In this document: positions 3,101 to 37,518 of the stretch, one piece after another
Layout: each line of letters starts with the position of its first letter
Position numbering within the stretch: position 1 is the stretch's first letter
NCBI GenBank assembly: GCA_964362395.1
Contig: CAYIER010000002.1
Location: 1 to 38,785 of the forward strand
Reading direction: 5' to 3'
Length of the DNA: 38,785 bases
DNA from: an uncultured archaeon
GTDB lineage: Archaea > Iainarchaeota > Iainarchaeia > Iainarchaeales > GW2011-AR10
Program-made: the position numbers and the translations under genes
Notes under the pieces: model-generated
Seen by the model: only the letters and a program-made list of their open reading frames with translations
Told to the model about the DNA's origin: nothing
The model's database searches: none

Positions 3101-3134
3101 ATGCTTTTACCTCCAAAAAATTTTATCATCGGTA

Positions 3135-3210
3135 CGCCGGCAAATTCCGGCGACAAATTTGTCCCGTCTGCGACGGGACTTCCATGCACCAACAAATAAT
3201 ACTCATTGGC
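3135..3210. repeat. Mosaic hairpin element, copy B (upstream leader region of L7Ae)
   Basis: cgccgg-caaatt-ccggcg, then acaaattt, then gtcccgtc-tgc-gacgggac. A 26-nt block tttgtcccgtctgcgacgggacttcc is identical to copy E. Confidence 0.75.
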
Positions 3211-3350
3211 CTTTTAGCTTCAAAAACAAAATCGACTAAAAAATCGATTATTTCAAAAGGGGGCCAATATATATAAAATTCCCATCACAAGCCTTAAAAG
3301 GCTATTTTCGGGGTTTTAGACCAAAAAACCAGCTTTTGACTTAGATCTGC

Positions 3351-5021
3351 TTATTTATGTGCAAACACGCATTTTATCCTGTTTGGGGAGATTTCTTCCG
3401 CGCGCGCATAGCCGAATTTTTCAAAGTACAAAACATCGCCCTCGTTTAGGTCGCCATTGTACTGCGTTATGCCAAGCATTTTTTTGCCGTCATCCATCAG
3501 GATTTCCACGTCAACGCTCTCAATCACCCAGCGAAGAATCTTTTTCCTTTCCCCGCTGCCAGGCTCATGGGTGCCCGCAAATTTTCCGGACGCAAAAAAA
3601 CCGCTTTTTTCAAGCAAATTCACATTCAGCGCTTTTTTTAGCCGAAAAACCGAACCAATTTTTACAGAATTAATTTCACTTTTTTCAACAAAAAAACTCT
3701 GGCTCCCCGCGCTAATTCCTATCCCGTGCGCCTCCATTTTCGGCGTGAACTGCACCGACAACTCAACCGGTTCGGTCAATAGTTCCGCTGGCACCGCTTT
3801 TTCCAGCAGTTCACCGCGATTGAGGTTCGCAAGCCTTGCAAACTCTATCGACGAGTCGTTTGTTTTAATCCCCAAATCAAGCACTGCCTTCTTGAGTGCC
3901 TGCGGCACAAATCCCCTTCTGCGCAGCGCGCGGATTGTCCCAAGCCGCGGGTCATCCCAGCCCGAGTAAATTCCTTTTTCGATTCCTTCCTTTATTTTCG
4001 AGGTGCTCAAAACCATTTTGCCCAATTTAATGCGCCCGAAATGAATTGAGTGCGGGTATGCCCAGCCAAAATACTCGTACAAAAATTTTTGTTTTGTCAT
4101 GTTTTGTTCGTGTTCTTGCCCGCGGATAATCAGTGTTACACCAAGCTCGTGGTCATCAATCGCTGACGCAAAATTGTACGACGGCCAGACATGAACATCC
4201 TTAACTTTTGGGTTTGGGTGCTCGACCTTGTCCACGATTTTTGCAGCCCACCAGTCGCGCACGCTCGGGTCAGGGTGCGACAAATCGGTTTTTATCCGAA
4301 GTACGGCAGAGCCCTCTTTTAATTCGTGGATGATCATTTTGTTGAAGCGCTCCATCTGCGAGTCGGAATTTTTTTCCCTGCACGGGCACGCCTTTTTTTT
4401 ACCGATTAGCTTTCTCCACTTTTCTGGCTCGCACTCGCACACATACGCGTGGCCCATTGAAATGGTTTTTCTCATAAAATCATGGTAAATTGAAAGGCGG
4501 TCTGACGCAAAAAAAACCTCTGCCGGCGGGCATCCAAGCCAGTTCAGGTCTTCAATATAAATTTCTTTTGCGTTTGCAATCGGCTTTTTCACCTTGGGAT
4601 CGGTGTCGTCAAATCGCAGGAAAAACTTTCCCAAATATTTTTTTGCATACTCAAAGCTCAGGATTGCCGCACGCGCGTTCCCCAAATGGAACGGGCCATT
4701 TGGATTTGGCGCAAAACGCGTCACAACCATGTCCTTTTTTGCCCACTCAAAATCAGGGAGACCAATCGGTTTTTCGGGCGGCTTTAATTCATAAGAGCCC
4801 TCAAATTTTTCAAACTCTTTTTCTATCCCGCCAAAATCCATTGCATTGACTTTTTTGACTGCCAAAGAAATGACCGGCATAGCCGCCTTCAAATCCAGTG
4901 CCTTGTCAAGCGCCTTCATTTTGCCGACAACAGCGCCAACATCCGCATGCCCCTCGTGCAAATAAGCGTTCTTTATTGCGTAGCGATAAGCGTCGTTTTC
5001 CAAATCCAAGCAAAACACCAA
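3351..5021 (-). CDS. gltX: Glutamyl-tRNA synthetase (archaeal type)
   Basis: RFAPNPNGPFHLGNARAA (HIGH-type motif) in a class I Glx-RS core, with VLSTSK in the KMSKS position. Confidence 0.9.
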   Translation of the reverse strand: MVFCLDLENDAYRYAIKNAYLHEGHADVGAVVGKMKALDKALDLKAAMPVISLAVKKVNAMDFGGIEKEFEKFEGSYELKPPEKPIGLPDFEWAKKDMVVTRFAPNPNGPFHLGNARAAILSFEYAKKYLGKFFLRFDDTDPKVKKPIANAKEIYIEDLNWLGCPPAEVFFASDRLSIYHDFMRKTISMGHAYVCECEPEKWRKLIGKKKACPCREKNSDSQMERFNKMIIHELKEGSAVLRIKTDLSHPDPSVRDWWAAKIVDKVEHPNPKVKDVHVWPSYNFASAIDDHELGVTLIIRGQEHEQNMTKQKFLYEYFGWAYPHSIHFGRIKLGKMVLSTSKIKEGIEKGIYSGWDDPRLGTIRALRRRGFVPQALKKAVLDLGIKTNDSSIEFARLANLNRGELLEKAVPAELLTEPVELSVQFTPKMEAHGIGISAGSQSFFVEKSEINSVKIGSVFRLKKALNVNLLEKSGFFASGKFAGTHEPGSGERKKILRWVIESVDVEILMDDGKKMLGITQYNGDLNEGDVLYFEKFGYARAEEISPNRIKCVFAHK

Positions 5022-6531: not shown

Positions 6532-6624
6532 TATAGCAAACTGCTTATATTTTTGAACATTTTATGGCAGTTTGCTATATGCAAAGAGCAATTAAAAGTT
6601 CAATTATTTATGCTCTTTGCTATA
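6532..6624 (+). repeat. 93-nt double-hairpin repeat, copy 1
   Basis: tatagcaaactgc-N24-gcagtttgctata, then tgcaaagagc-N-gctctttgctata. 92/93 identical to 31684-31776. Confidence 0.9.
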
Positions 6625-9984: not shown

Positions 9985-10090
9985 TGCAGGGGGGAGGATT
10001 CGAACCCCCGAAGGCACTGAGCCACAGGATCGCTCATCTTATTTTATTGCATCTTAAGTCCTGCCCATTAAACCGCTTTGGTACCCCTGC
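9985..10090 (-). tRNA. tRNA-Leu (anticodon UAA), class II, with a ~22-nt intron at the canonical 37/38 position; no encoded CCA
   Basis: Minus strand: acceptor GCAGGGG/CCCCTGC plus A73, 3-bp D stem, anticodon stem CAGGA/TCCTG with loop CTTAAGA interrupted by an insert, long variable arm GGC-TCAGT-GCC, T arm GGGGG-TTCGAAT-CCTCC. Confidence 0.8.
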
Positions 10091-17382: not shown

Positions 17383-17807
17383 TTTTTGGCCTCCATCACA
17401 GTGGATTCAAGGTGCTTTTTTCCCCGAAAATAACCACCCTTAACCATAAGGTATGCTTTCCTGTAAGGGATTTTCATCTTCTGTTTTCCCTGCTTTAATT
17501 CCTTAAGCTTTTTCCTCTGCGCCCGAACAGCCCTCATCCATTTTTCCTTTGGATTTGTCCGCGCCTTTGCAGTTCCCTTTCTTTTACCAAACCCTCTTTT
17601 GCTTCCCTTCTTTCTTAAAAGCGCCCTTTTCTTATTCTTGCCTGCAAGCCTTTTTTCTTTGACAATCCCTTCCTTAATCAATAACCGCAGATCCTCTTTT
17701 GTCATTGCCTCAGCCACCCTTTCATTTTCAAGCGGGCTGACCCAAATCCTGCTCTTGCCTGTTTTAAGCAATTGCCCCGCCATCCCTTTTGCTTTCTGCG
17801 CCTTCAT
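17379..17807 (-). CDS. rpl19e: 50S ribosomal protein L19e
   Basis: G.SRIWVSP......A.T.ED.R.LI.EG.....R motif. ATG at 17807 lies in the relic junction; the ORF track uses GTG at 17816. Confidence 0.9.
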   Translation of the reverse strand: MKAQKAKGMAGQLLKTGKSRIWVSPLENERVAEAMTKEDLRLLIKEGIVKEKRLAGKNKKRALLRKKGSKRGFGKRKGTAKARTNPKEKWMRAVRAQRKKLKELKQGKQKMKIPYRKAYLMVKGGYFRGKKHLESTVMEAKK

Positions 17808-17819
17808 CTTTTTCACCCG
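17803..17819. repeat. Direct repeat, proximal copy: relic of the L32e stop region overlapping the L19e start
   Basis: ttcatctttttcacccg here versus ttcatcttttccacctg at 17943-17959 (15/17), 140 nt apart, flanking hairpin element D. Confidence 0.7.
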
Positions 17820-17922
17820 CCTGCAAAATCACGCCAACAAATTGGCAATTGAACAAATTCTAGAATATTCTTTCGCCAATTTGTTGCGACACTTTCCTGC
17901 CATCCCGCTTCGCTCAATGGCA
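17818..17922. repeat. Mosaic hairpin element, copy D (between L32e and L19e)
   Basis: A degenerate caaaat-loop hairpin, then the long hairpin aacaaattggc-N28-gccaatttgtt, then gcgacactttcc, then tgccat-N-aatggca. Confidence 0.8.
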
Positions 17923-17942
17923 CTTCAAAAATCAAATTTTCA

Positions 17943-17959
17943 TTCATCTTTTCCACCTG
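17943..17959. repeat. Direct repeat, distal copy: the functional 3' end of L32e (..RWKR-TGA)
   Basis: See 17803-17819. Confidence 0.7.
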
Positions 17960-22615: not shown

Positions 22616-22821
22616 CCTTTGCTATCCACCTTTTTTTCCCGCATAATTGTCAGGACGCGTGCAATCCCGCGGCGCATAGTCCTGAGTTTTGCGGGTTTAT
22701 CTGATTTTGTCCCTGACACCGCATGAGACCGCTCCTTTGCAAGATTGCTCTTCAAATCAACCAACTGTGATTCCAACTCAGGCACCGACTTGTCCCGAAG
22801 CACTGCATTCTTTTTGCTCAT
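22612..22821 (-). CDS. rpl29: 50S ribosomal protein L29
   Basis: LRDKSV.EL..QL.DLK..L and R..RR.IARVLT motifs. Confidence 0.9.
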   Translation of the reverse strand: MSKKNAVLRDKSVPELESQLVDLKSNLAKERSHAVSGTKSDKPAKLRTMRRGIARVLTIMREKKVDSKG

Positions 22822-23741
22822 TGCCCTTCACCTGTAATTTTCTTTTCAACAGCCAAATCTTCCTGTGCCTTTTCCTTTCCATGCACTTCTGCGGCTGGAA
22901 TTTTTTTCTCCTTTATTTTTTCTTTTGCGCTTTTTTCCGGGTGCTTTTGCGCCTTTTTCCCTTTTTTGCCTTCAACGGCTTTTTTTTCTTCAACAACAAC
23001 TGGAGCAATCTCCACAACGCCCTCTGCGGCCTGCGGCAAAGAAACCCCGCCAACTTCCGCGGCTGCCACAATTGCCACCTGTTCTGGCACGGCCAGTTTA
23101 GTTTCAGCTTCCACTTTTTTCTGCGCCAATTCCCTTCTTTGCCTTAAAATTTCCCCAATGTCCACCTTGTCCGGAAACACTGTTTCAGGCCTGACAATCC
23201 TGATTTTTATCCCGATTGCACCCGGCTTTGGGTACGCGGTTGCCTTTGCAAAATCAACAAGCTTTACCTGGTGGCCGGTTTTTTTCATATAGCCAACGCC
23301 AATCCTCTGCCTTCTTTTTCTTCCACCCTTTCCAGTAAGCTTTCCAGACAAAATCAATTCAATTCCCTGTGCGCCCTTTGCCTCAATGTCCTTCACCGTC
23401 CTATACGCAATGCTTCTCCAACTGAAACCCCGCTCAATTGCACCCTTTACCTTGTTCACCATTGCCCTTGCATCAAGCTCAGGTATTGGCAGCTCCTTTA
23501 TTTCAAGCTGCGGGTTCTCAATCCCAAACCTCTGCGCAATCGTTTCAGTTATTTTCCTTATGTTTGAGCCGCTTTTCCCGATTGCAAGGCCCGGCTTTAC
23601 AACGTTCACAATTATCCTTGTCACAAGAGGCGTTTTTACGATTTCAGATTTCGTGAAACCGGCCTTGTCCATTTCCTTTGCAAGGTACTCGTCCAATTCC
23701 ACCCTCTTAATCCCCTGCTCAATAAAATGGCGCTCAATCAT
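22818..23741 (-). CDS. rps3: 30S ribosomal protein S3 (KH domain) with ~100-aa Ala/Lys/Glu-rich C-terminal extension
   Basis: KH-domain core (IIVNVVKPGLAIGKSGSNI), SGKL.G.....R and PGAIGIKI.I motifs. Confidence 0.95.
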   Translation of the reverse strand: MIERHFIEQGIKRVELDEYLAKEMDKAGFTKSEIVKTPLVTRIIVNVVKPGLAIGKSGSNIRKITETIAQRFGIENPQLEIKELPIPELDARAMVNKVKGAIERGFSWRSIAYRTVKDIEAKGAQGIELILSGKLTGKGGRKRRQRIGVGYMKKTGHQVKLVDFAKATAYPKPGAIGIKIRIVRPETVFPDKVDIGEILRQRRELAQKKVEAETKLAVPEQVAIVAAAEVGGVSLPQAAEGVVEIAPVVVEEKKAVEGKKGKKAQKHPEKSAKEKIKEKKIPAAEVHGKEKAQEDLAVEKKITGEGQ

Positions 23742-24211
23742 TTCGATGCCTCCATTGCAACAATCTCAATGTGCGTTGCCTTGCTTCTGTGGCGTTTCCC
23801 GGAAATCCGGCCCTGCTTCTGGTTGCTTGCGCGCCTAAAACCCTCGCAAACAAACGCATGGACAATCACAAGGTTATTCGAATCAAGCCCCTTGTAATCC
23901 GCATTTGCCTTAAGGTTCAAAATAATCTTCAAAAAATTTTCCGCAAGCCTAATTGGGTACCTGCCAACCTTTGTCGCACTCCTTGGGATTCCCTTCCTGT
24001 GGCCGGTTTTCTTTATGTACTTTTTCAGCGGCAGATGTTCCTTTTTTTCAATTATGTTTTTCAAAAACTCTTCAACCCGCTTTACCCGCTTTCCCCTGAT
24101 TTCGCGCACCAACTCAGTCGAATACTTCAATGACACGGGCTGGTTTTTTGCCATGACCATTGCACACTTTTTGGTGTCCCGGATTTCAACCTGGTAATTT
24201 TTCTTAACCAT
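23738..24211 (-). CDS. rpl22: 50S ribosomal protein L22
   Basis: AMVMAKNQPVS.K...E..R.IRG and H.FV.EG....R...RA.GR......ATHIEIV motifs. Confidence 0.95.
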   Translation of the reverse strand: MVKKNYQVEIRDTKKCAMVMAKNQPVSLKYSTELVREIRGKRVKRVEEFLKNIIEKKEHLPLKKYIKKTGHRKGIPRSATKVGRYPIRLAENFLKIILNLKANADYKGLDSNNLVIVHAFVCEGFRRASNQKQGRISGKRHRSKATHIEIVAMEASK

Positions 24212-24215
24212 CCAA

Positions 24216-24623
24216 TCATCCCCGCGCCGTGATTGCAGTGCTTGACTTTGTTGCGCCGATCCCTGCCTTTCCGTGCGACAGCCTCTTTCGGGTCAAAACA
24301 AATTCGCCCAAATAGTGGCCAAGCATTTTATCCATGACCGACATAACCTGGAATTCCTTCCCATTATAAACGGCAAACTTCAGCCCGACCATCTTTGGCA
24401 GAACCGGGAAATCCCTCAAATGCGTCCGAATGATTTTTGGCTCATGCCCCTGCTGCTTTTGCAAAAACGCGCTGCCGATTGCCCCCAAAAAACCCTTGCT
24501 GTAATTTCCCCTAAGCAAAGACCTCTTTATCCTTGAGCCTGCAATCACTGCAAACTGTGCCTCGCTCATTGCAACAAGCTCTTCCATTGTTTTTCCGCGA
24601 AAAGTAAATTCTTTTTTTACCAT
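24216..24623 (-). CDS. rps19: 30S ribosomal protein S19
   Basis: IRTH.RD..VLP.MVG....VYNGKEF..V.....M.GHYLGEF..TRK...HG motif. Confidence 0.95.
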   Translation of the reverse strand: MVKKEFTFRGKTMEELVAMSEAQFAVIAGSRIKRSLLRGNYSKGFLGAIGSAFLQKQQGHEPKIIRTHLRDFPVLPKMVGLKFAVYNGKEFQVMSVMDKMLGHYLGEFVLTRKRLSHGKAGIGATKSSTAITARG

Positions 24624-24633
24624 AACATCACAA

Positions 24634-24750
24634 CAACCGCAAAATCGGCACCAAATTGACAGTTGAACAATTCTGGATATTTTCTTTTGCCAATTCGGTG
24701 TGACACTTTTGTCCCGTCTGCGACGGGACTTCCGGCAAATAATTCATTGC
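24634..24750. repeat. Mosaic hairpin element, copy E (between L2 and S19)
   Basis: A truncated caaaat-loop hairpin, then the long hairpin caccaaattgaca-N26-tgccaattcggtg, then gtgacactttt, then gtcccgtc-tgc-gacgggac. About 85% identical to copy F over ~95 nt. Confidence 0.85.
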
Positions 24751-24769
24751 AATTTCCATAAAAACACAA

Positions 24770-25492
24770 TCACAATTTTTTATGCCTTCCCGTTCTCTTT
24801 GACGCAATCGCCCCGACCTTTCTTCCTGCAGGCGCATGCCTTGAAGTGGACTTTGATTTACCCGGATGGTGCTGTGAGCCGCCAAACGGATGCGAGTTCG
24901 GGTTCATTGCAACACCCCTCACAATCGGGTAATGCTTCCTTTTTGAATGGAACAAATGGTACCTTGGCCCGGCCTTAACCATGGGCTTTTCAACGCGCCC
25001 GCCGCCAGCGGCAAGCCCGATTGTTGCCCTGCAATGCGGGTGCAGTTCAGTTGTTTTGCCTGACGGCAACTTGACAAAAACATGCCCCTTGTCCTTTGAA
25101 AGAATCATTGAATACCCGCCGCCTGCACGCACAAGGCTTCCCCCGTCACCGGGGCTGTTCTCAATGTTAAAAATCGGGCAACCCTCAACACAGCTTTCAA
25201 GAGTCAAAACATTCCCCATTTCAAGCGCAGCATTTTTTCCAAACTCAACACGCTGCCCTACAACAGTACCCTCTGCCGCAATCGTGAAACCCATAGAGCC
25301 ATCATCAAACAAAATCTTTGCAAGCACGCTGCTGTTCGTCGGGTCATGCACAAACGCAACCAATTCCCCGACCCTCTTGCCAGTCAACTGTTTTTCGTCA
25401 AGCGAAAAATACCTTGCCACCTGCACATTGGACTTTCTTGCCCTAAAAATCGAGCCCTTCCCTTTCCTCTGGACCAAAATCCGCTTGCTCAT
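24770..25492 (-). CDS. rpl2: 50S ribosomal protein L2
   Basis: GN...L...P.G..I.NIE..PGDGG.L.R.GG and GVAMNP..HPFGG..HH.GK motifs. Confidence 0.95.
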   Translation of the reverse strand: MSKRILVQRKGKGSIFRARKSNVQVARYFSLDEKQLTGKRVGELVAFVHDPTNSSVLAKILFDDGSMGFTIAAEGTVVGQRVEFGKNAALEMGNVLTLESCVEGCPIFNIENSPGDGGSLVRAGGGYSMILSKDKGHVFVKLPSGKTTELHPHCRATIGLAAGGGRVEKPMVKAGPRYHLFHSKRKHYPIVRGVAMNPNSHPFGGSQHHPGKSKSTSRHAPAGRKVGAIASKRTGRHKKL

Positions 25493-25966
25493 TTACAGCA
25501 CCCCAAGCTTTGTCGCAATCTCGTCCGCACGGAACTGCCTGCTGATTTTAACAAACGCCCTCTTCCTTCCCTTTGTGTCCCGCAAAATATTCACCTTGTC
25601 AACCTTTATTTTATACAAACCCTCAACCGCATCCTTCACTTCAGATTTTGACGCCCCGCCATTCACAACAAACACCAGTTTGTTCTCAGACTCAATCATG
25701 CCCACCGACTTTTCCGTAATCAACGGGTGAAGAATGGTTTCAAATGCCTTGAGTGCAACCGTTTTGTCTGCTGGAAGCTCTCCCGTAAATTCCTTTACAA
25801 CAACACTTTTTTTTGCGCCACCTTTGGCCGCTTTTTTTTCAGCAATCTTTGAAGCGATTTTTTTCTTCGCCACAATTTTTTTTGCCACTTTCTGCACTTT
25901 GTGCGCCGCAGTTTTTTTTGCTGCAGCCTTTTTCTGTGTGGGTTTTTTTGCTTTCTGCTTAACCAT
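25493..25966 (-). CDS. rpl23: 50S ribosomal protein L23 with ~70-aa Lys/Ala-rich N-terminal extension
   Basis: The C-terminal 85 aa match L23 (ILHPLITEKS....E..NKLVFVV...A.K.E.K.AVE.LY..KV..VN). The N-terminus is low-complexity KKAAAKK. Confidence 0.9.
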   Translation of the reverse strand: MVKQKAKKPTQKKAAAKKTAAHKVQKVAKKIVAKKKIASKIAEKKAAKGGAKKSVVVKEFTGELPADKTVALKAFETILHPLITEKSVGMIESENKLVFVVNGGASKSEVKDAVEGLYKIKVDKVNILRDTKGRKRAFVKISRQFRADEIATKLGVL

Positions 25967-25973
25967 ACATTTA

Positions 25974-26005
25974 CCACTTGCCCTCTAAAGCCTTTATCGC
26001 GTCCT
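25974..26005. repeat. Direct repeat, proximal copy: relic of the L4 3' end (DAIKALEGKW-TAA) 4 nt upstream of the L23 ATG
   Basis: ccacttgccctctaaagcctttatcgcgtcct here versus 26087-26118 ccattttccctctaaagcctttatcgcgtcct (30/32), 113 nt apart. Confidence 0.85.
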
Positions 26006-26086
26006 TACCGCCTGCAAAATCAGGCGACACTTTTTCCCCATTCTTCGAATGGGGATTCTGCGCACAAATAAAAAACATCTCCATCA
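26006..26086. repeat. Mosaic hairpin element, copy H (between L4 and L23)
   Basis: cgcctg-caaaat-caggcg (26009-26026), then acacttttt, then ccccatt-cttcg-aatgggg (26036-26054). Bracketed by the 32-nt direct repeat. Confidence 0.85.
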
Positions 26087-26890
26087 CCATTTTCCCTCTA
26101 AAGCCTTTATCGCGTCCTCGCTCCACAAAGTGAGCCTTCCCGGGACAGCGCCCGGCGCAAGGAGCTTTGCATTGACGTTTTTCACATTCACAACCTCTAC
26201 ACCCTCAATGTTTCGCGCCGCCTTAAAAATCTTCGCCGAATCACTCACAACAATCAAAACACTCTTTGCCTTCTTGTACCGCCTTCCCCTCTTCTTTCCC
26301 TTTCCAGCCCTTCTCTTCCGCGCAGCCTTTGCCCTATCAACATCCAAAATCAACGAAAGCCTCTCAAGCGCCAAAACCACATTTTTTGTCCTGTCAAGCG
26401 CCTCGATTTTTTTCTCAACAATAACTGGAAAAACAAGTTTGTCCGAAATTTTGTGCCCCCTCTTTCGCACCAGTTCCGCAACCGCTGTCGCCGCAATCGC
26501 GCTTCTTGTCGCCTTCTGCTTTTCCTTGCGGTTAATCTTTTCCTTAAGGATTTTTTCAACCTTTGGCGGATGTGCCGCCGGGCCACCAACCGCCCAAGGA
26601 ACAAGCGCTACTTTTCCCGAAGAAATATATCTCCTGTTCCGCATCCTTGGCAGCCGTGCCTTTTCAATGTTGATTGTCCTGTGCATCTGCGGCTTTCGCC
26701 TTGCACCAATATAGCGCGCAGTGTAATTCCTTCCCGCGCTCTTCTTTGTTCCCTTTGGCTGCATTGCCGCGCTCTCAATTGACAACACGGCCCGCTTTAT
26801 CAGGTTTCCATCAATCGGCTCGCTGAAAACACCCGGCAGTTCAATTTCCCGGACTTTCTGCCCCTCAATGCTCAACACGCTTGCTTTCAT
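26084..26890 (-). CDS. rpl4: 50S ribosomal protein L4
   Basis: Typical archaeal L4 (...GRNYTARYIGARR..Q......GGPAAHPPK...) located between L3 and L23. Confidence 0.95.
   Translation of the reverse strand: MKASVLSIEGQKVREIELPGVFSEPIDGNLIKRAVLSIESAAMQPKGTKKSAGRNYTARYIGARRKPQMHRTINIEKARLPRMRNRRYISSGKVALVPWAVGGPAAHPPKVEKILKEKINRKEKQKATRSAIAATAVAELVRKRGHKISDKLVFPVIVEKKIEALDRTKNVVLALERLSLILDVDRAKAARKRRAGKGKKRGRRYKKAKSVLIVVSDSAKIFKAARNIEGVEVVNVKNVNAKLLAPGAVPGRLTLWSEDAIKALEGKW
26087..26118. repeat. Direct repeat, distal copy: the functional 3' end of L4 (..EDAIKALEGKW-TGA)
   Basis: See 25974-26005. Confidence 0.85.
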
Positions 26891-26907
26891 AAAAAATCAA
26901 CCGGATT

Positions 26908-26928
26908 ATTTTTTCCCGCCACCCATTG
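26908..26928. repeat. Direct repeat, proximal copy: relic of the L3 3' end (MGGGKK-TAA) 15 nt upstream of the L4 ATG
   Basis: attttttcccgccacccattg here versus 27018-27038 attttttcccgccgcccattg (20/21), 110 nt apart. Confidence 0.85.
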
Positions 26929-27017
26929 CGGCCGCGTGCAAAATCACGCGACACTTTTGTGCCATTTCGCTTTGCTCAATGGCAATGTCATTGCTCGCCA
27001 ATAATTTGTGACTGTTC
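26929..27017. repeat. Mosaic hairpin element, copy G (between L3 and L4)
   Basis: cgcgtg-caaaat-cacgcg (26933-26950), then acacttttg, then tgccatt-tcgctttgctc-aatggca (26960-26984). Bracketed by the 21-nt direct repeat. Confidence 0.85.
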
Positions 27018-28167
27018 ATTTTTTCCCGCCGCCCATTGTAGCTTCCTTTATTTCATCCGCAACGCTTTTCTTTTCAACCTTTGCCTCTTTCTTTACAACA
27101 ATCCGCTGTGCCCGGACTTCGTCTCCTGCAACCGCTTCCTTCTCCTTCCTCTTTACCCCAAGAACAGAAAGCTCCGCGACATTAAACAAACCCTTGTAAC
27201 CAACCCTGATCGGGTCCCTTAAAGCAACAGCCCTCTTTACCGGCCCAGGCGTGCTTCCGCCAAGCAAAATAAACTGGTTCTTTATCACACCATAGCCTTC
27301 AAAACCGTGCGGCACATTTATTTCCGCAGGATTATTTGAAATCCTCAAAAGCCTCTTGTTGAGTTCCGTCCTGGACTGATACCCCATCTGGCCAGGCCTT
27401 GCAACAAACCTCATAACCGTTGAAGGATTCCACGGCCCAATACTTCCAACAACCCTTCTCTTCTTTGCCTTTCGCCTGTGCATCTTTACACCAAACCTTT
27501 TGATGACACCGGTAAAGCCCTTTCCGGCATCCACTGCCTTCACGTCAACAAACTGTTTTTCCTCAAACACCTCGTTGACTGAAAGATCCTTGCCAAGCTT
27601 TTCCTTTGCAAACTTCCACTGGTCGGCAACGCTTCCGCCAACAAAAACCTCAAACACATCCGCCACCTTTTTCCCAAAACCAAGCAAACCCGGCCTAGTG
27701 CTGCACAAAAGCTTTACTTTAACGATTTTGTCAACCTGCTTTTCCAAATCAGAAACCGTAGCATAACTTTTTTCGCCCCCTTCTTTCCCGCCCTTTTTCT
27801 TATTGCTCTTTCTCTTAAAATCAGGGTGGCGCTTCCTGAAAAACTTGTCAGGCTTCTCAACAGTCGCTTCGCCCAAAACACGCAGCGCGCCCTGCTCTTT
27901 CGTATAAGCCCTAATGCCAAAAACAGACAGCGGAGGGCACTCAATAACCGTCAAAGGAATCACGACCTGTTGCCCAAAACTCGTGGCCTTCTCCTGCTTA
28001 TTAACCGCAACCGCATGAACCATCCCAGCCTTATAGCCGACAAAATTCAACGGCTTTGCTTTCTGCCTGGAAAGCACATTGTCTGACCTAAAAGTAGCCA
28101 GTTCCCTTGCAGCCCTCTTTCTTGGGTAAAATGCCAGTGAGCCAGACCTTGGCTTGTGCCGAGTCAT
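27016..28167 (-). CDS. rpl3: 50S ribosomal protein L3
   Basis: PR.GSLAFYPRKRA, F.GYKAGM.H and GKGF.GV.KR.G....RRK motifs. First gene of the L3-L4-L23-L2 cluster. Confidence 0.95.
   Translation of the reverse strand: MTRHKPRSGSLAFYPRKRAARELATFRSDNVLSRQKAKPLNFVGYKAGMVHAVAVNKQEKATSFGQQVVIPLTVIECPPLSVFGIRAYTKEQGALRVLGEATVEKPDKFFRKRHPDFKRKSNKKKGGKEGGEKSYATVSDLEKQVDKIVKVKLLCSTRPGLLGFGKKVADVFEVFVGGSVADQWKFAKEKLGKDLSVNEVFEEKQFVDVKAVDAGKGFTGVIKRFGVKMHRRKAKKRRVVGSIGPWNPSTVMRFVARPGQMGYQSRTELNKRLLRISNNPAEINVPHGFEGYGVIKNQFILLGGSTPGPVKRAVALRDPIRVGYKGLFNVAELSVLGVKRKEKEAVAGDEVRAQRIVVKKEAKVEKKSVADEIKEATMGGGKK
27018..27038. repeat. Direct repeat, distal copy: the functional 3' end of L3 (..ATMGGGKK-TGA)
   Basis: See 26908-26928. 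Confidence 0.85.
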
Positions 28168-28324
28168 TTACATACCACTTTCAAAAACCACTGAAAATGC
28201 ACACAGGCCGGCAAAACGCCAGCAAAAAAGGGGGGAACCTTTCAAAATGCTAAAAAAAGCCAAAAAACAGCTATTTTTTTTGCATTTATATCCTTAGAAG
28301 ATTTACTAAGGATACAGTGTGCTT

Positions 28325-28393
28325 CGCCGACAAAATTCGGCGGTGCTTTCCTGCCATTTCGCTTCGCTCAATGGCAATGCGCCTTGTAGGCGC
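28325..28393. repeat. Mosaic hairpin element, copy I (upstream of the L3 operon)
   Basis: cgccga-caaaat-tcggcg, then gtgctttcc, then tgccatt-tcgcttcgctc-aatggca, then gcgcct-tgt-aggcgc. Confidence 0.8.
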
Positions 28394-28604
28394 TTTTAAT
28401 ATAAATTATATGTAATTGCCCCATAAAAGGTATTTAAAGGTATTGTGGGGCAGGTTATAAATGGTTGCCCAAAAACAAATTTACGAAGGACATTAATTCG
28501 GGATAAGACAAAACCTAACTCCTGCAAAAAAGTATAAATATATGTTGGGGCTTAATATAAGTTGTTTATAATCATAAAAAATTTATTCATTAGTTGTGGT
28601 AGTT

Positions 28605-31447: not shown

Positions 31448-31542
31448 TGTATACAAATTGCGGCACACCAAGTATTTAAATGTTACTTTTTAACGAGAAT
31501 TAGTGAATTGTATGTAAATTGTATGTAAAATCCGGCTGCTTC

Positions 31543-31635
31543 AACCGCAAAATCGGCACCAAATTGACAGTTGAATAATTATGACTAATTTCTTTTGCCA
31601 ATTTGGTGTGGCGCTTTCACCTGCTAAAGCGGGAC
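31543..31635. repeat. Mosaic hairpin element, copy F (upstream of the surface protein gene)
   Basis: aaccgcaaaatcgg, then the long hairpin caccaaattgaca-N26-tgccaatttggtg, then a degenerate terminal hairpin. Close paralog of copy E. Confidence 0.85.
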
Positions 31636-31683: not shown

Positions 31684-31776
31684 TATAGCAAACTGCTTAT
31701 ATTTTTGAACATTTTATGGCAGTTTGCCATATGCAAAGAGCAATTAAAAGTTCAATTATTTATGCTCTTTGCTATA
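31684..31776 (+). repeat. 93-nt double-hairpin repeat, copy 2
   Basis: 92/93 identical to 6532-6624. The single difference is at 31728. Confidence 0.9.
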
Positions 31777-33799: not shown

Positions 33800-33949
33800 T
33801 TTGCTTTTTCACCTCCCCTTGCACCGGAAACCCGGTGTGTCTCTTTAAATGGATTTTTAACCCACTTTCAACAAAAACTATCTGTGCAAACAATTAAAAC
33901 CATTAATCCCAATTTGGCTTCTTTGCATGGCTACCTTTGTGCAGATAGC

Positions 33950-34042
33950 TATAGCAAACTGCATTTGTTTTTGAACTATTGAGACAGTTTGCTATATGCA
34001 AAAAGCAATTAATTTGTTCAATTATCTATGCTCTTTGCTATA
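33950..34042 (+). repeat. 93-nt double-hairpin repeat, copy 3 (diverged, ~80% identical, same length)
   Basis: Shares the termini tatagcaaactg...ctctttgctata and both stems. Differences are concentrated in the loops. Confidence 0.8.
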
Positions 34043-35410: not shown

Positions 35411-35646
35411 AATTTATCAAGCCTTTTATCCCTTAATTTGTCAAGTTTATCTGTTTTTTTCCTGTAGCCTGTAATTGCATTTTCAACTTTTTTTGCTTCC
35501 CTTTCGGATAAAAAGCCTGCAAATTCCAAAATGCTTGTTTTCTCCTTGTCCGCAAGCCGCTCAAACAGGTCAGAAAAACTTTCTTCAGTTTTTTTTACTT
35601 TAACCAATTTATTATAAACTGTGTCTTTTATAGTCAGTGTTTTCAT
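35398..35646 (-). CDS. vapB: VapB-type antitoxin (archaeal UPF0330/COG1753-like)
   Basis: MKTLTIKDTVYNKLVKVKKTEESFSDLFERL pattern. 13-nt overlap with vapC. Confidence 0.75.
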   Translation of the reverse strand: MKTLTIKDTVYNKLVKVKKTEESFSDLFERLADKEKTSILEFAGFLSEREAKKVENAITGYRKKTDKLDKLRDKRLDKLWLS

Positions 35647-35744
35647 ATTTTTTCACAAAAACATCTGCCCATAAATGTATTTAAACATAATGTTTAAACA
35701 TTTCTCATTTTTTATAGTAATGCATGATTATTTGGCATATTGCC

Positions 35745-35875
35745 GCACCATAGAAGATGGTGCACGTATGCGTTGTAAACCAACCGCGAAATCGGTTGAC
35801 GCTTTAGTGTCCTCTTCGAGGACAGTCCCGCTGCAAGCGGGACAAATTCGTCGCCAGAATTTGCTGGCGGGCGCA
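35745..35875. repeat. Mosaic hairpin element, copy J (between archease and vapB); collinear with copy A
   Basis: Hairpins: gcaccat-agaag-atggtgc, caaccg-cgaaat-cggttg, gtcctc-ttc-gaggac, gtcccgc-tgcaa-gcgggac, aaattc-gtcgcca-gaattt (alternative fold cgccag-aatttg-ctggcg). Confidence 0.8.
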
Positions 35876-35884
35876 AAAGTTTTT

Positions 35885-36310
35885 TTAAACATCAATCACA
35901 ACAGTTGCCTTAAATTTTCCTTTCAGTTTTTCAATTTTAAACAAATGCTTTGTGGCCGCCTTGACATCGCTTCGAAGTCGCTTGTCAGGATACTTTATAT
36001 GCTCTCCAAAACATTTTGCACTTAACCCAAACTCTTTTTCTTTTTTTATTTTTGTTTCAAAGCGCGAAAACACAATTTCCTGCACGTCTTTCACAAAAAC
36101 AAGCTCTGACAGCCAGCCAAAAAGCAGTTCTTCAAGCGTTGCGGCAGATAGCCGGATTTCCACCTTGGTTTTTGGCCCGATTTTTTTTGTGTCAGCCATT
36201 ATCTCAAAAAGTGCTTCCGCGGCGTTCTCAAACAGCTCTTCCACTGTTTTCCCGTAAGCCTCAAATGCCGACTCAGCAATTGCCGTGTCCTCCAAAAATA
36301 GGTACTTCAT
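35885..36310 (-). CDS. Archease (RtcB activator)
   Basis: YLFLEDTAIAESAFEAYGKTVEELFENAAEALF start and VKAATKHLFKIE....KATVVIDV C-terminus. Confidence 0.9.
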   Translation of the reverse strand: MKYLFLEDTAIAESAFEAYGKTVEELFENAAEALFEIMADTKKIGPKTKVEIRLSAATLEELLFGWLSELVFVKDVQEIVFSRFETKIKKEKEFGLSAKCFGEHIKYPDKRLRSDVKAATKHLFKIEKLKGKFKATVVIDV

Positions 36311-37366: not shown

Positions 37367-37449
37367 TAACAAATTGGCAAAAGAAATCCCATAAATTATT
37401 CACTTGCCAATTTGTTACGCCGCATATATGCCCCGCCTGAAGGCGAGAC
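37367..37449. repeat. Mosaic hairpin element, copy K (between EF-1alpha and S10)
   Basis: Long hairpin taacaaattggcaa-N23-ttgccaatttgtta (14 bp perfect), then gccccgcc-tgaa-ggcgagac. Confidence 0.8.
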
Positions 37450-37518
37450 AATAATACCCCAATATATTATAATGGAATAAAAAAAATTTTTGGGAAAAAA
37501 CCCAAAATAGTAACAGCA

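Follow-up and report, generated by a model that had tools for sequence, protein, structure and literature searches.

Two neighbouring ribosomal protein genes of an archaeal operon, L4 and L23, are separated by a second, nearly perfect copy of the L4 3' end and by 80 nt of intervening DNA. What this DNA is, and how it entered the junction while both genes stayed intact, are the questions raised by the locus. The window, meaning the whole 38.8-kb stretch of DNA that was analysed, carries a long archaeal ribosomal protein cluster on its minus strand, and the genes surrounding the duplication are as follows in the open reading frame (ORF) list.

27016-28167, minus strand: L3
26084-26890, minus strand: L4, with its UGA stop at 26084-26086
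25493-25966, minus strand: L23, with its AUG at 25964-25966
24770-25492, minus strand: L2
24216-24623, minus strand: S19
23738-24211, minus strand: L22
22818-23741, minus strand: S3

Further ribosomal protein genes, L7Ae, S28e, L24e, ndk, EF-1alpha and S10 lie elsewhere in the window, and a tRNA at 9985-10090 is its sole Rfam match above the gathering threshold. The best named homologues of L4 belong to Candidatus Diapherotrites / Iainarchaeum (DPANN archaea). Near-identical contigs (99.0-99.8%) come from Hainich groundwater assemblies and from two other read sets; the population is represented in the 0.1 um fraction of Hainich groundwater H51 (ERZ1292623, ERZ1292627, ERZ1292643). In all, approximately 41 kb of the genome was covered, comprising the window and about 2.4 kb from contigs carrying ndk and archease.

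A duplicated gene end between L4 and L23

A repeat finder identified a 33-nt direct repeat at 25973-26005 and 26086-26118 (31/33 identical, 94%), with a start-to-start distance of 113 nt. This repeat contains the duplication described by an earlier, sequence-only reading of the same DNA, namely 32 nt with 30 identities at the same spacing. Only two sites differ between the copies, both of them third codon positions (GGA/GGC and AAA/AAG). On the coding strand, the upstream copy reads ...WSEDAIKALEGKW-UGA and terminates L4 at the same length as in relatives; both the ORF at 26084-26890 and the relatives' L4 length thus agree with the earlier view that this is the true L4 end. The downstream copy reads K-DAIKALEGKW-UAA, followed by AUGU and the AUG of L23, again as had been described, and the two hairpins previously noted in between (ccccatt/aatgggg, 26036-26054; cgcctg/caggcg, 26009-26026) are likewise present. 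When the flanks of the insert, hereafter element A, were compared (upstream of hairpin 1 versus downstream of hairpin 2), none of 2000 shuffles matched the observed score (p<0.0005). The parts of the locus, in the order of transcription, are listed below with the evidence for each.

26086-26118, minus strand: upstream duplication copy, the functional L4 3' end (..R/EDAIKALEGKW); ORF and repeat finder
26055-26085, minus strand: AU-rich 5' arm of element A (GAUGGAGAUGUUUUUUAUUUGUGCGCAGAAU), poorly conserved and hypervariable between strains; alignment of copies
26036-26054, minus strand: hairpin 1 (CCCCAUU-CGAAG-AAUGGGG); fold and covariation
26027-26035, minus strand: conserved single-stranded linker AAAAAGUGU(C); exact motif matches
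26009-26026, minus strand: hairpin 2 (CGCCUG-AUUUUG-CAGGCG), with a conserved loop and covarying stem, marking the 3' end of the element
25973-26005, minus strand: downstream (duplicated) copy of the L4 end; repeat finder and flank test
25971-25973, minus strand: UAA stop of the downstream copy
25967-25970, minus strand: 4-nt spacer
25964-25966, minus strand: AUG of L23

The same L4/L23 arrangement is found in contigs L034-L037, and the comparable arrangement at L3/L4 (below) in L033. These represent five or six independent assemblies from different samples, and neither arrangement is therefore an assembly artefact.

A dispersed family of hairpin repeats

The 80 nt between the repeat copies are a member of a dispersed repeat family. 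Further copies were located by motif searches, self-BLAST and a hairpin scan, and a covariance model was built from five of them. At least 12 copies, all small and non-coding, are present in the 38.8 kb. Members share a plan in which an AU-rich 5' arm (20-33 nt) is followed by hairpin 1, the linker AAAAGUGUC, an optional 13-bp hairpin and hairpin 2 with its AUUUUG loop; the short form measures about 80-125 nt, and the long form is distinguished by the extra hairpin. Exact matches to the core motif occur at 26014-26034 and 26938-26958, versus 0.06 expected by chance, and AAAGTGTC is present in four copies. Elements A and B, the latter at the L3/L4 junction, share a common layout of a hairpin, AAAAGUGUC and a second hairpin, whose stem shows a compensatory change from C-G to G-C. 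Run on the window, the covariance model recovered its five source copies at 60-67 bits, including element A (26009-26054, 62.6 bits), along with seven weaker matches at 20-40 bits, two of them inverted. By self-BLAST, copies C and F are 91% identical over 69 nt, and hairpin 1 is shared at 26/26 positions by C and G and at 27/28 by B and H. The copies other than element A are as follows.

26908-27038, minus strand: copy B, the sister insertion at L3/L4; repeats at 27018-27038 and 26908-26928, core at 26933-26984, 66.7 bits
24617-24769, minus strand: copy C at L2/S19, long form with the extra 13-bp hairpin; flanking repeat diverged, about 17 nt, extending across the L2 stop and the S19 start
17803-17957, minus strand: copy D at L32e/L19e, long form; 15-nt flanking repeat (14/15)
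3104-3226, minus strand: copy G upstream of L7Ae; 16-nt flanking repeat (14/16), 64 bits
2127-2288, minus strand: cluster E between L24e and ndk, with two or three modules in tandem plus an inverted one
28325-28376, minus strand: copy H upstream of the L3 promoter region; self-BLAST and covariance model
31541-31635, minus strand: copy F in a non-coding spacer, ahead of the promoter of a gene for 614 amino acids; no flanking repeat, stops in 3/3 frames
35781-35869: copies I (plus strand, 35826-35869) and I' (minus strand, 35781-35824), head to head

A peptide-coding element was considered and rejected, as A and B read the conserved nucleotide core in different frames. Pattern scans of public data yielded no match in viral contigs and nine in JGI metagenomes, all of them chance matches to unrelated high-GC or repetitive DNA, and the approximately 2.4 kb added from the ndk and archease contigs held no new copy.

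Flanking duplications and element ends

The duplication at L4/L23 is one of several that flank members of the family. The earlier reading had pointed to the same pattern at L3/L4, where 26908-26928 and 27018-27038 do form a 21-nt repeat (20/21, 95%) with a spacing of 110 nt. The two L3 repeat copies are identical in strain contigs L033, L034 and L037. Contigs L035 and L036 carry an L3 allele (GCC-GCA) that lengthens the repeat to about 26 nt, which indicates that the duplication was originally longer than it appears in the window. The flanking repeats and their shuffle-test probabilities are given below.

A: 33 nt, p<0.0005 (2000 shuffles)
B: 21-26 nt, p<0.0005
D: 15 nt, p=0.0015
G: 16 nt, p=0.006
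I: about 22 nt, diverged, p=0.07 (borderline)
C: about 17 nt, diverged with an indel, p=0.12 (weak to borderline)

In the same flank-versus-flank test, no significant flanking repeat was detected for E, F or H. In the positive cases, the second repeat copy starts 0-3 nt past hairpin 2, apart from G, where it starts 15 nt past. The duplications at D and C span both the upstream stop and the downstream start, and at G the Shine-Dalgarno sequence GGAGGU is kept in the downstream repeat copy only. At A and B, the last duplicated base is the U of the original UAA; the GA with which the insert begins completes the new UGA stops of L4 and L3. Terminal inverted repeats were not found when the first 35 nt of A, B, C, D and G were compared with the reverse complement of the last 35 nt (p=0.21-0.99), and the repeat finder returned no inverted repeat spanning the inserts.

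Compact junctions in relatives

Six relatives with 61-71% L4 identity were compared at L4/L23; a scan of a genome collection for L4 returned mostly distant archaea and two useful relatives. The spacings at the junctions that are occupied in the window are listed below, with relatives designated by three-digit handles.

L4/L23: ATGA overlap (L030, L031); 4 nt (L032, L001); 10 nt (L053); 1 nt (L054)
L3/L4: 5-27 nt
L2/S19: 5-16 nt; in L001, 75 nt of unrelated sequence
L32e/L19e: 11 nt (L002, L053); in L001, 105 nt of unrelated sequence

The L4/L23 junction is therefore compact in all six relatives, as the sequence-only reading had predicted for genomes lacking the element, and the 4-nt spacer of L032 and L001 reproduces the geometry of the UAA-AUGU-AUG stretch that follows the downstream copy. 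The relatives' L4 and L3 have C-termini that match in length those encoded by the window's upstream copies. The nearest genome without the L4/L23 insert has 71% L4 identity, which is too distant for a base-by-base comparison with the pre-insertion state, and among the strain contigs no presence/absence polymorphism of the insert was seen within the population. Taken as a whole, the dispersed family, the flanking duplications at other members and the compact junctions of relatives make an inserted element with target duplication the best reading of the locus: the L4/L23 insert is one copy of the hairpin repeat, whose target was duplicated in such a way that L4 and L23 are both intact.

The covariance model found no copy in relatives L001, L002, L030, L032, L053 and L054. 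L031 (67% L4 identity), with junctions A, B and C empty, possesses a module of hairpin 1, linker and hairpin 2 at the position of copy H, flanked by a conserved TATA-like box on one side and a conserved downstream block on the other, and differing from copy H by compensatory changes in both stems. The shared module places the origin of the family before the split of those two lineages, and it suggests that copy H, at least, is under selection, a pattern that fits host function as well as mobility.

RNA structure and strain variation

The stems of both hairpins covary. Across copies, hairpin 2 is paired in 92.6% of cells and five of its six pairs show double changes (0/500 shuffles as high), with the last four bases of its loop (UUUG) invariant. 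Hairpin 1 is 100% paired, and five of its seven pairs change on both sides. Among strains, the 5' arms of A and B vary at 6 of 64 nt versus a background of 0.85% (p=2e-5), including SNPs at 26075 and 26079 in the arm of element A. The cores of A and B contain one SNP in 98 nt, situated in a loop; it is the single strain SNP of hairpin 1 in element A, at 26046. In copy C, two strain SNPs keep pairing on the mRNA strand (U-A to U.G; G.U to A-U).

No Rfam family fits the repeat: the gathering-threshold scan gave the tRNA alone, and permissive scans of 24500-27200 and 35600-35950 gave chance-level matches only. Box C/D, H/ACA sRNA and K-turn assignments were rejected, since B does not conserve the UGAUGG and CUGA strings of element A; in B, the bases at the CUGA position belong to the covarying stem of hairpin 2. 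A candidate pseudoknot between CAAAA of the linker and UUUUG of the loop shows one A-U to U-A switch, in G and I; these two copies form one subfamily, the loop geometry is tight and pairing is not clearly kept in the L031 copy, making the pseudoknot a lead only. The motif AUUAUUUG in the 5' arm, considered as a promoter, is a poor match to the local TATA boxes.

Relay reading frames

The element at L4/L23 is crossed by a short reading frame, here termed a relay ORF, of 37-39 codons (25971-26087, minus strand; ORF list and geometry test). Its AUG overlaps the L4 stop (UGAUG), and it ends at the duplicated UAA. Relay ORFs are present in all five operon-internal insertions, starting a few bases at most from the upstream stop (as UGAUG or AUGA, or at a neighbouring UUG or GUG) and stopping 4-22 nt ahead of the downstream start codon or overlapping it. 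Gene callers predict those of A and B as genes of 37 amino acids, the former in L034-L036. Overall, a stop-free sense frame occurs in 5/5 operonic copies versus 2/5 non-operonic ones. A loose test, asking only that some frame be free of stops across the spacer, gave no significant result (27-82% of shuffles). The start-and-stop geometry was reproduced in 5-23% of dinucleotide shuffles per junction, a nominal joint probability of 4e-5 for windows chosen after seeing the data. The relay peptides are not conserved, and any selection would thus be for translatability and not for a protein product. Recoding of UGA was rejected, as UGA is an ordinary stop that ends 25 of the 46 genes, many of them in ATGA overlaps.

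The downstream copy of the L4 end had been called a relic. It is indeed a duplicated target, but it is probably not inert, since it preserves the sequence natively found upstream of L23 and the relay ORF ends at its stop.

Origin of the insert

The repeat is probably a non-autonomous mobile element, lineage-specific and hairpin-rich, that makes long target duplications of variable length. In the proposed course of events, an ancestral junction of the form ...EGKW-UAA-AUGU-AUG(L23) would have been invaded at cuts, or template switches, staggered by 33 nt; the predicted uninserted L4/L23 junction reads ...GAGGG(A/C)AA(A/G)UGGUAAAUGUAUGG. Gap repair would then have given two copies of the final 11 codons of L4. 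The upstream copy would now end L4, its UGA stop borrowing GA from the first two bases of the insert as at L3/L4, and the downstream copy would retain the sequence context in which L23 is natively initiated. Owing to such a long duplication, insertion into a junction with zero or four spare bases could spare both genes. The element would be transcribed as part of the operon mRNA, and operonic copies may persist only where a stop-free frame leads from the upstream stop to the downstream start, with ribosomes on the relay ORF presumably unwinding the hairpins and keeping termination-reinitiation coupling. The hairpins and the loop may be conserved for recognition by a mobilising enzyme, or for a role at the RNA level. 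A host function at the RNA level would also be compatible with the purifying selection seen in the core and with the module shared upstream of L3.

That function is the basis of the principal rival, a somewhat unlikely one, in which the repeat is a cis-acting RNA element of the host (a protein binding site, stabiliser or processing signal) that was copied ahead of ribosomal protein genes for common control, with the duplication kept since the L4 end and the L23 initiation region are both needed. The covarying stems and conserved loop would be expected of such an element, as would a core that is as invariant among strains as coding sequence and SNPs that keep pairing with G.U on the mRNA strand. 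Most copies are also co-oriented with the downstream gene, 10-45 nt before the starts of L4, L23, S19, L19e, L7Ae and ndk, and the equivalent module upstream of L3 has been kept in L031 despite only 67% L4 identity. However, five of the six relatives lack the element, their junctions included; F, H and I/I' are situated away from transcribed operon junctions, two copies are in inverted orientation, the modules of cluster E are piled up, and Rfam offers no match. A copying mechanism would still be required, so that a host function complements mobility and does not replace it. A further and rather improbable alternative is SINE-like retroposition, whereby a reverse transcriptase recognising the 3' hairpin copies a small structured RNA into nicked DNA, giving a fixed 3' end, a ragged 5' end and variable duplications. 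The 3' boundary of A-D, 0-3 nt past hairpin 2, agrees with this, as do 5' arms that vary in length (20-33 nt) and sequence, duplications ranging from 15 to 33 nt and the lack of terminal inverted repeats; moreover, H and I, each having a TATA-like box upstream and a U-run downstream, look as if they could be transcription units of their own. On the other hand, the window encodes no reverse transcriptase, an A-rich or simple-repeat tail is absent, and the 5' raggedness may be ordinary decay of hypervariable arms. To our knowledge, archaea are not known to copy non-intron RNAs by target-primed reverse transcription, which also counts against retroposition.

Replication template switching deserves about the same low credence. 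Here a stalled nascent strand would copy a distant hairpin-rich element and re-enter the operon upstream of its exit point, leaving a templated insertion with a variable duplication. Such a process would account for the varying duplication lengths, for the lack of both terminal inverted repeats and a transposase in the window, and for the mosaic nature of the copies, in which hairpin-1 types and short and long forms are reassorted; yet the 3' boundary recurs at one point, and about a dozen events in 38.8 kb would be many for a passive process. It is very improbable that the second copy is instead the real C-terminus of an alternative L4 product, reached by a -1 frameshift at G_GGA_AAA, through translational bypass or through splicing of a 113-nt intron. 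The slippery heptamer G GGA AAA, of the X_XXY_YYZ form, occurs in frame at the end of L4 but not in the second copy, no stop interrupts the -1 frame up to that copy, and the three differences between repeat copies, two of them at L4/L23 and one at L3/L4, all concern third codon positions. Nevertheless, L4 already has the homologous length with an ordinary UGA stop, so that splicing is unneeded, and bypass or splicing would leave the protein sequence unchanged. Hairpin 1 begins about 35 nt past the heptamer, too far to stimulate frameshifting (5-9 nt at frameshift sites), L3/L4 has no in-frame heptamer, other copies lie in non-coding DNA, and a bulge-helix-bulge motif (two 3-nt bulges with a 4-bp helix between them) was not evident in minimum-free-energy folds of the elements.

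Comparison with known elements

Returning to the mobile repeat, its closest counterparts are miniature inverted-repeat elements (MITEs) and other small repeats that are co-transcribed with genes, such as the Correia, ERIC, BOX and Rickettsia palindromic elements, with which it shares a small size (about 80-180 nt), a non-coding, multi-copy and structured nature, restriction to a lineage, and an intergenic or intercistronic location; as in MITEs and similar small repeats, the younger copies are flanked by direct repeats. Rickettsia palindromic elements stay translatable, as the operonic copies do here. Terminal inverted repeats and short, 2-10 bp target duplications define MITEs (PMC11602168, PMC10969869), and DPANN genomes are reported to be rich in them (PMC11602168). 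Unlike MITEs, whose terminal inverted repeats measure about 10-30 bp and whose duplications are fixed in length, the present family has no terminal inverted repeats, and its duplications are of 15-33 bp and variable; it thus lacks two defining MITE features.

The sequence-only reading had taken variable duplication length as an argument against a fixed staggered-cut transposase. The variability is real (15-33 nt), but it does not exclude a transposase, given that IS1634 and IS1549 generate variable-length direct repeats of 8-514 bp on insertion by a mechanism that is unexplained (PMC2266710). The IS1634 family has been reported preferentially in Euryarchaeota (PMC2266710). The likeness to IS1634 and IS1549 lies in the long, variable direct repeats at insertion sites. 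These IS elements, however, are autonomous (1.5-2 kb, with a DDE transposase), and no such gene is present in the window, nor were shared termini found. More broadly, no transposase, integrase or reverse transcriptase is encoded in the 38.8-kb window, the additional 2.4 kb or so holds no transposase either, and no autonomous partner was found.

Other systems resemble the family in part. REP, BIME and REPIN sequences are hairpin units mobilised by RAYT transposases, often intercistronic and co-transcribed, some of them as inverted pairs; REP elements are bacterial and insert without target duplication. Inverted pairs are seen here as well (I/I' and cluster E), in contrast with significant target duplications at A, B, D and G, and the window contains no HUH (IS200/IS605-type) transposase gene. 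Target-primed reverse transcription of eukaryotic SINEs and LINEs yields variable target duplications, a 3' end defined by a stem-loop and a variable 5' end. With no reverse transcriptase in the window and no tail, the family differs from them, and the likeness is a resemblance only. Finally, casposons and other integrative elements that duplicate a gene 3' end restore the gene; they are large and integrase-encoding, with a fixed target and duplication length. The target duplication at L4/L23 is similarly a gene 3' end, a likeness that serves as a lead only.

DPANN genomes are very compact, with ribosomal protein genes overlapping or lying a few bases apart, and their junctions should nearly exclude insertions. 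The family appears to have found a way round this constraint, as a duplication that regenerates both the end of the upstream gene and the start region of the downstream one, together with a translatable insert, would admit selfish or regulatory DNA to the most conserved operon of the cell. Long variable duplications without terminal inverted repeats point either to a wide-stagger transposase of the IS1634 kind or to copying without a transposase, neither of which has a mechanistic model. It is tempting, if distinctly speculative, to suggest an archaeal mobile element of a new type, without terminal inverted repeats, that uses the 3' hairpin with its AUUUUG loop as a recognition handle and makes 15-33 bp duplications by SINE-like target-primed copying or a wide-stagger integrase. 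Such an element would colonise the zero-spacer junctions of a streamlined DPANN ribosomal operon, with the duplication rebuilding gene ends and the relay ORF keeping coupling, and some copies may have been co-opted as operon RNA signals. The conserved hairpin loop provides a concrete handle for finding the partner protein.

Additional repeats and possible junction insertions

The window carries a second repeat family, unrelated to the main hairpin family and represented by three copies of 93 nt that are 85-99% identical:

6532-6624, 93-nt repeat
31684-31776, 93-nt repeat
33949-34042, 93-nt repeat

Its copies are bounded by terminal inverted repeats (TATAGCAAA...TTTGCTATA) with a pair of hairpins between them, which makes the family look like a conventional MITE. 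The main family, for its part, has a partial member in the EF-1alpha/S10 spacer (37385-37470), consisting of an AUUAUUG motif, a hairpin, and a long hairpin (AACAAAUUGGCAA...UUGCCAAUUUGUU), with hairpin 2 absent. Around the head-to-head main-family copies I' and I, the predicted folding of 35700-35890 (+) is unusually stable (z=-4.95; 0 of 200 shuffles equal). This stretch begins past a TATA-like TTTAAACA and its last part is a run of seven T; possible readings are a small RNA gene in its own right and a source copy of the main family.

Long junction spacers are also found in the relative L001:

L001 12190-12266, L2/S19 spacer, 75 nt
L001 19900-20005, L32e/L19e spacer, 105 nt

Both contain hairpins unrelated to the main family of the window, and insertions at gene junctions may therefore be recurrent in this phylum.

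Strain variation at elements B and C

Two haplotypes, set apart by five or six linked SNPs, occur at 26990-27040; they run from the final L3 codons (EATM vs EAAM) into the 5' arm of element B, the main-family copy at L3/L4, in a pattern that resembles a tract of recombination or gene conversion. At element C, the L2/S19 copy, one strain (contig L036) has a 2-nt deletion (24632-24633) shortly upstream of the S19 start. Two open frames run through the element and the deletion switches which one finishes at that start, so a relay frame, extending from the upstream gene's stop to the downstream gene's start, is still present.

Conserved region upstream of L3 and other features

A non-coding stretch of ~250 nt upstream of L3 is kept across relatives with L4 identity of only 61-67%:

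28168-28440, window
3905-4235, L031
8520-8830, L001
8540-8840, L032

Within it are a TATA-like CCTTTAAATACC, the blocks AGCACAC, TCCCCC, and CTGTGTG, A-runs and U-runs, and a covarying hairpin that overlaps GGATATAAATGC. The region could be an operon leader or attenuator, or else a small RNA.

The sole Rfam match in the window is a tRNA (9985-10090, -), which at 106 nt is long enough to hold an intron. L23 is extended at its N terminus by a Lys/Ala-rich segment of roughly 60-70 residues (25760-25966), and S3 carries a Lys/Glu-rich C-terminal tail (22818-23100), both underlain by internal nucleotide repeats.
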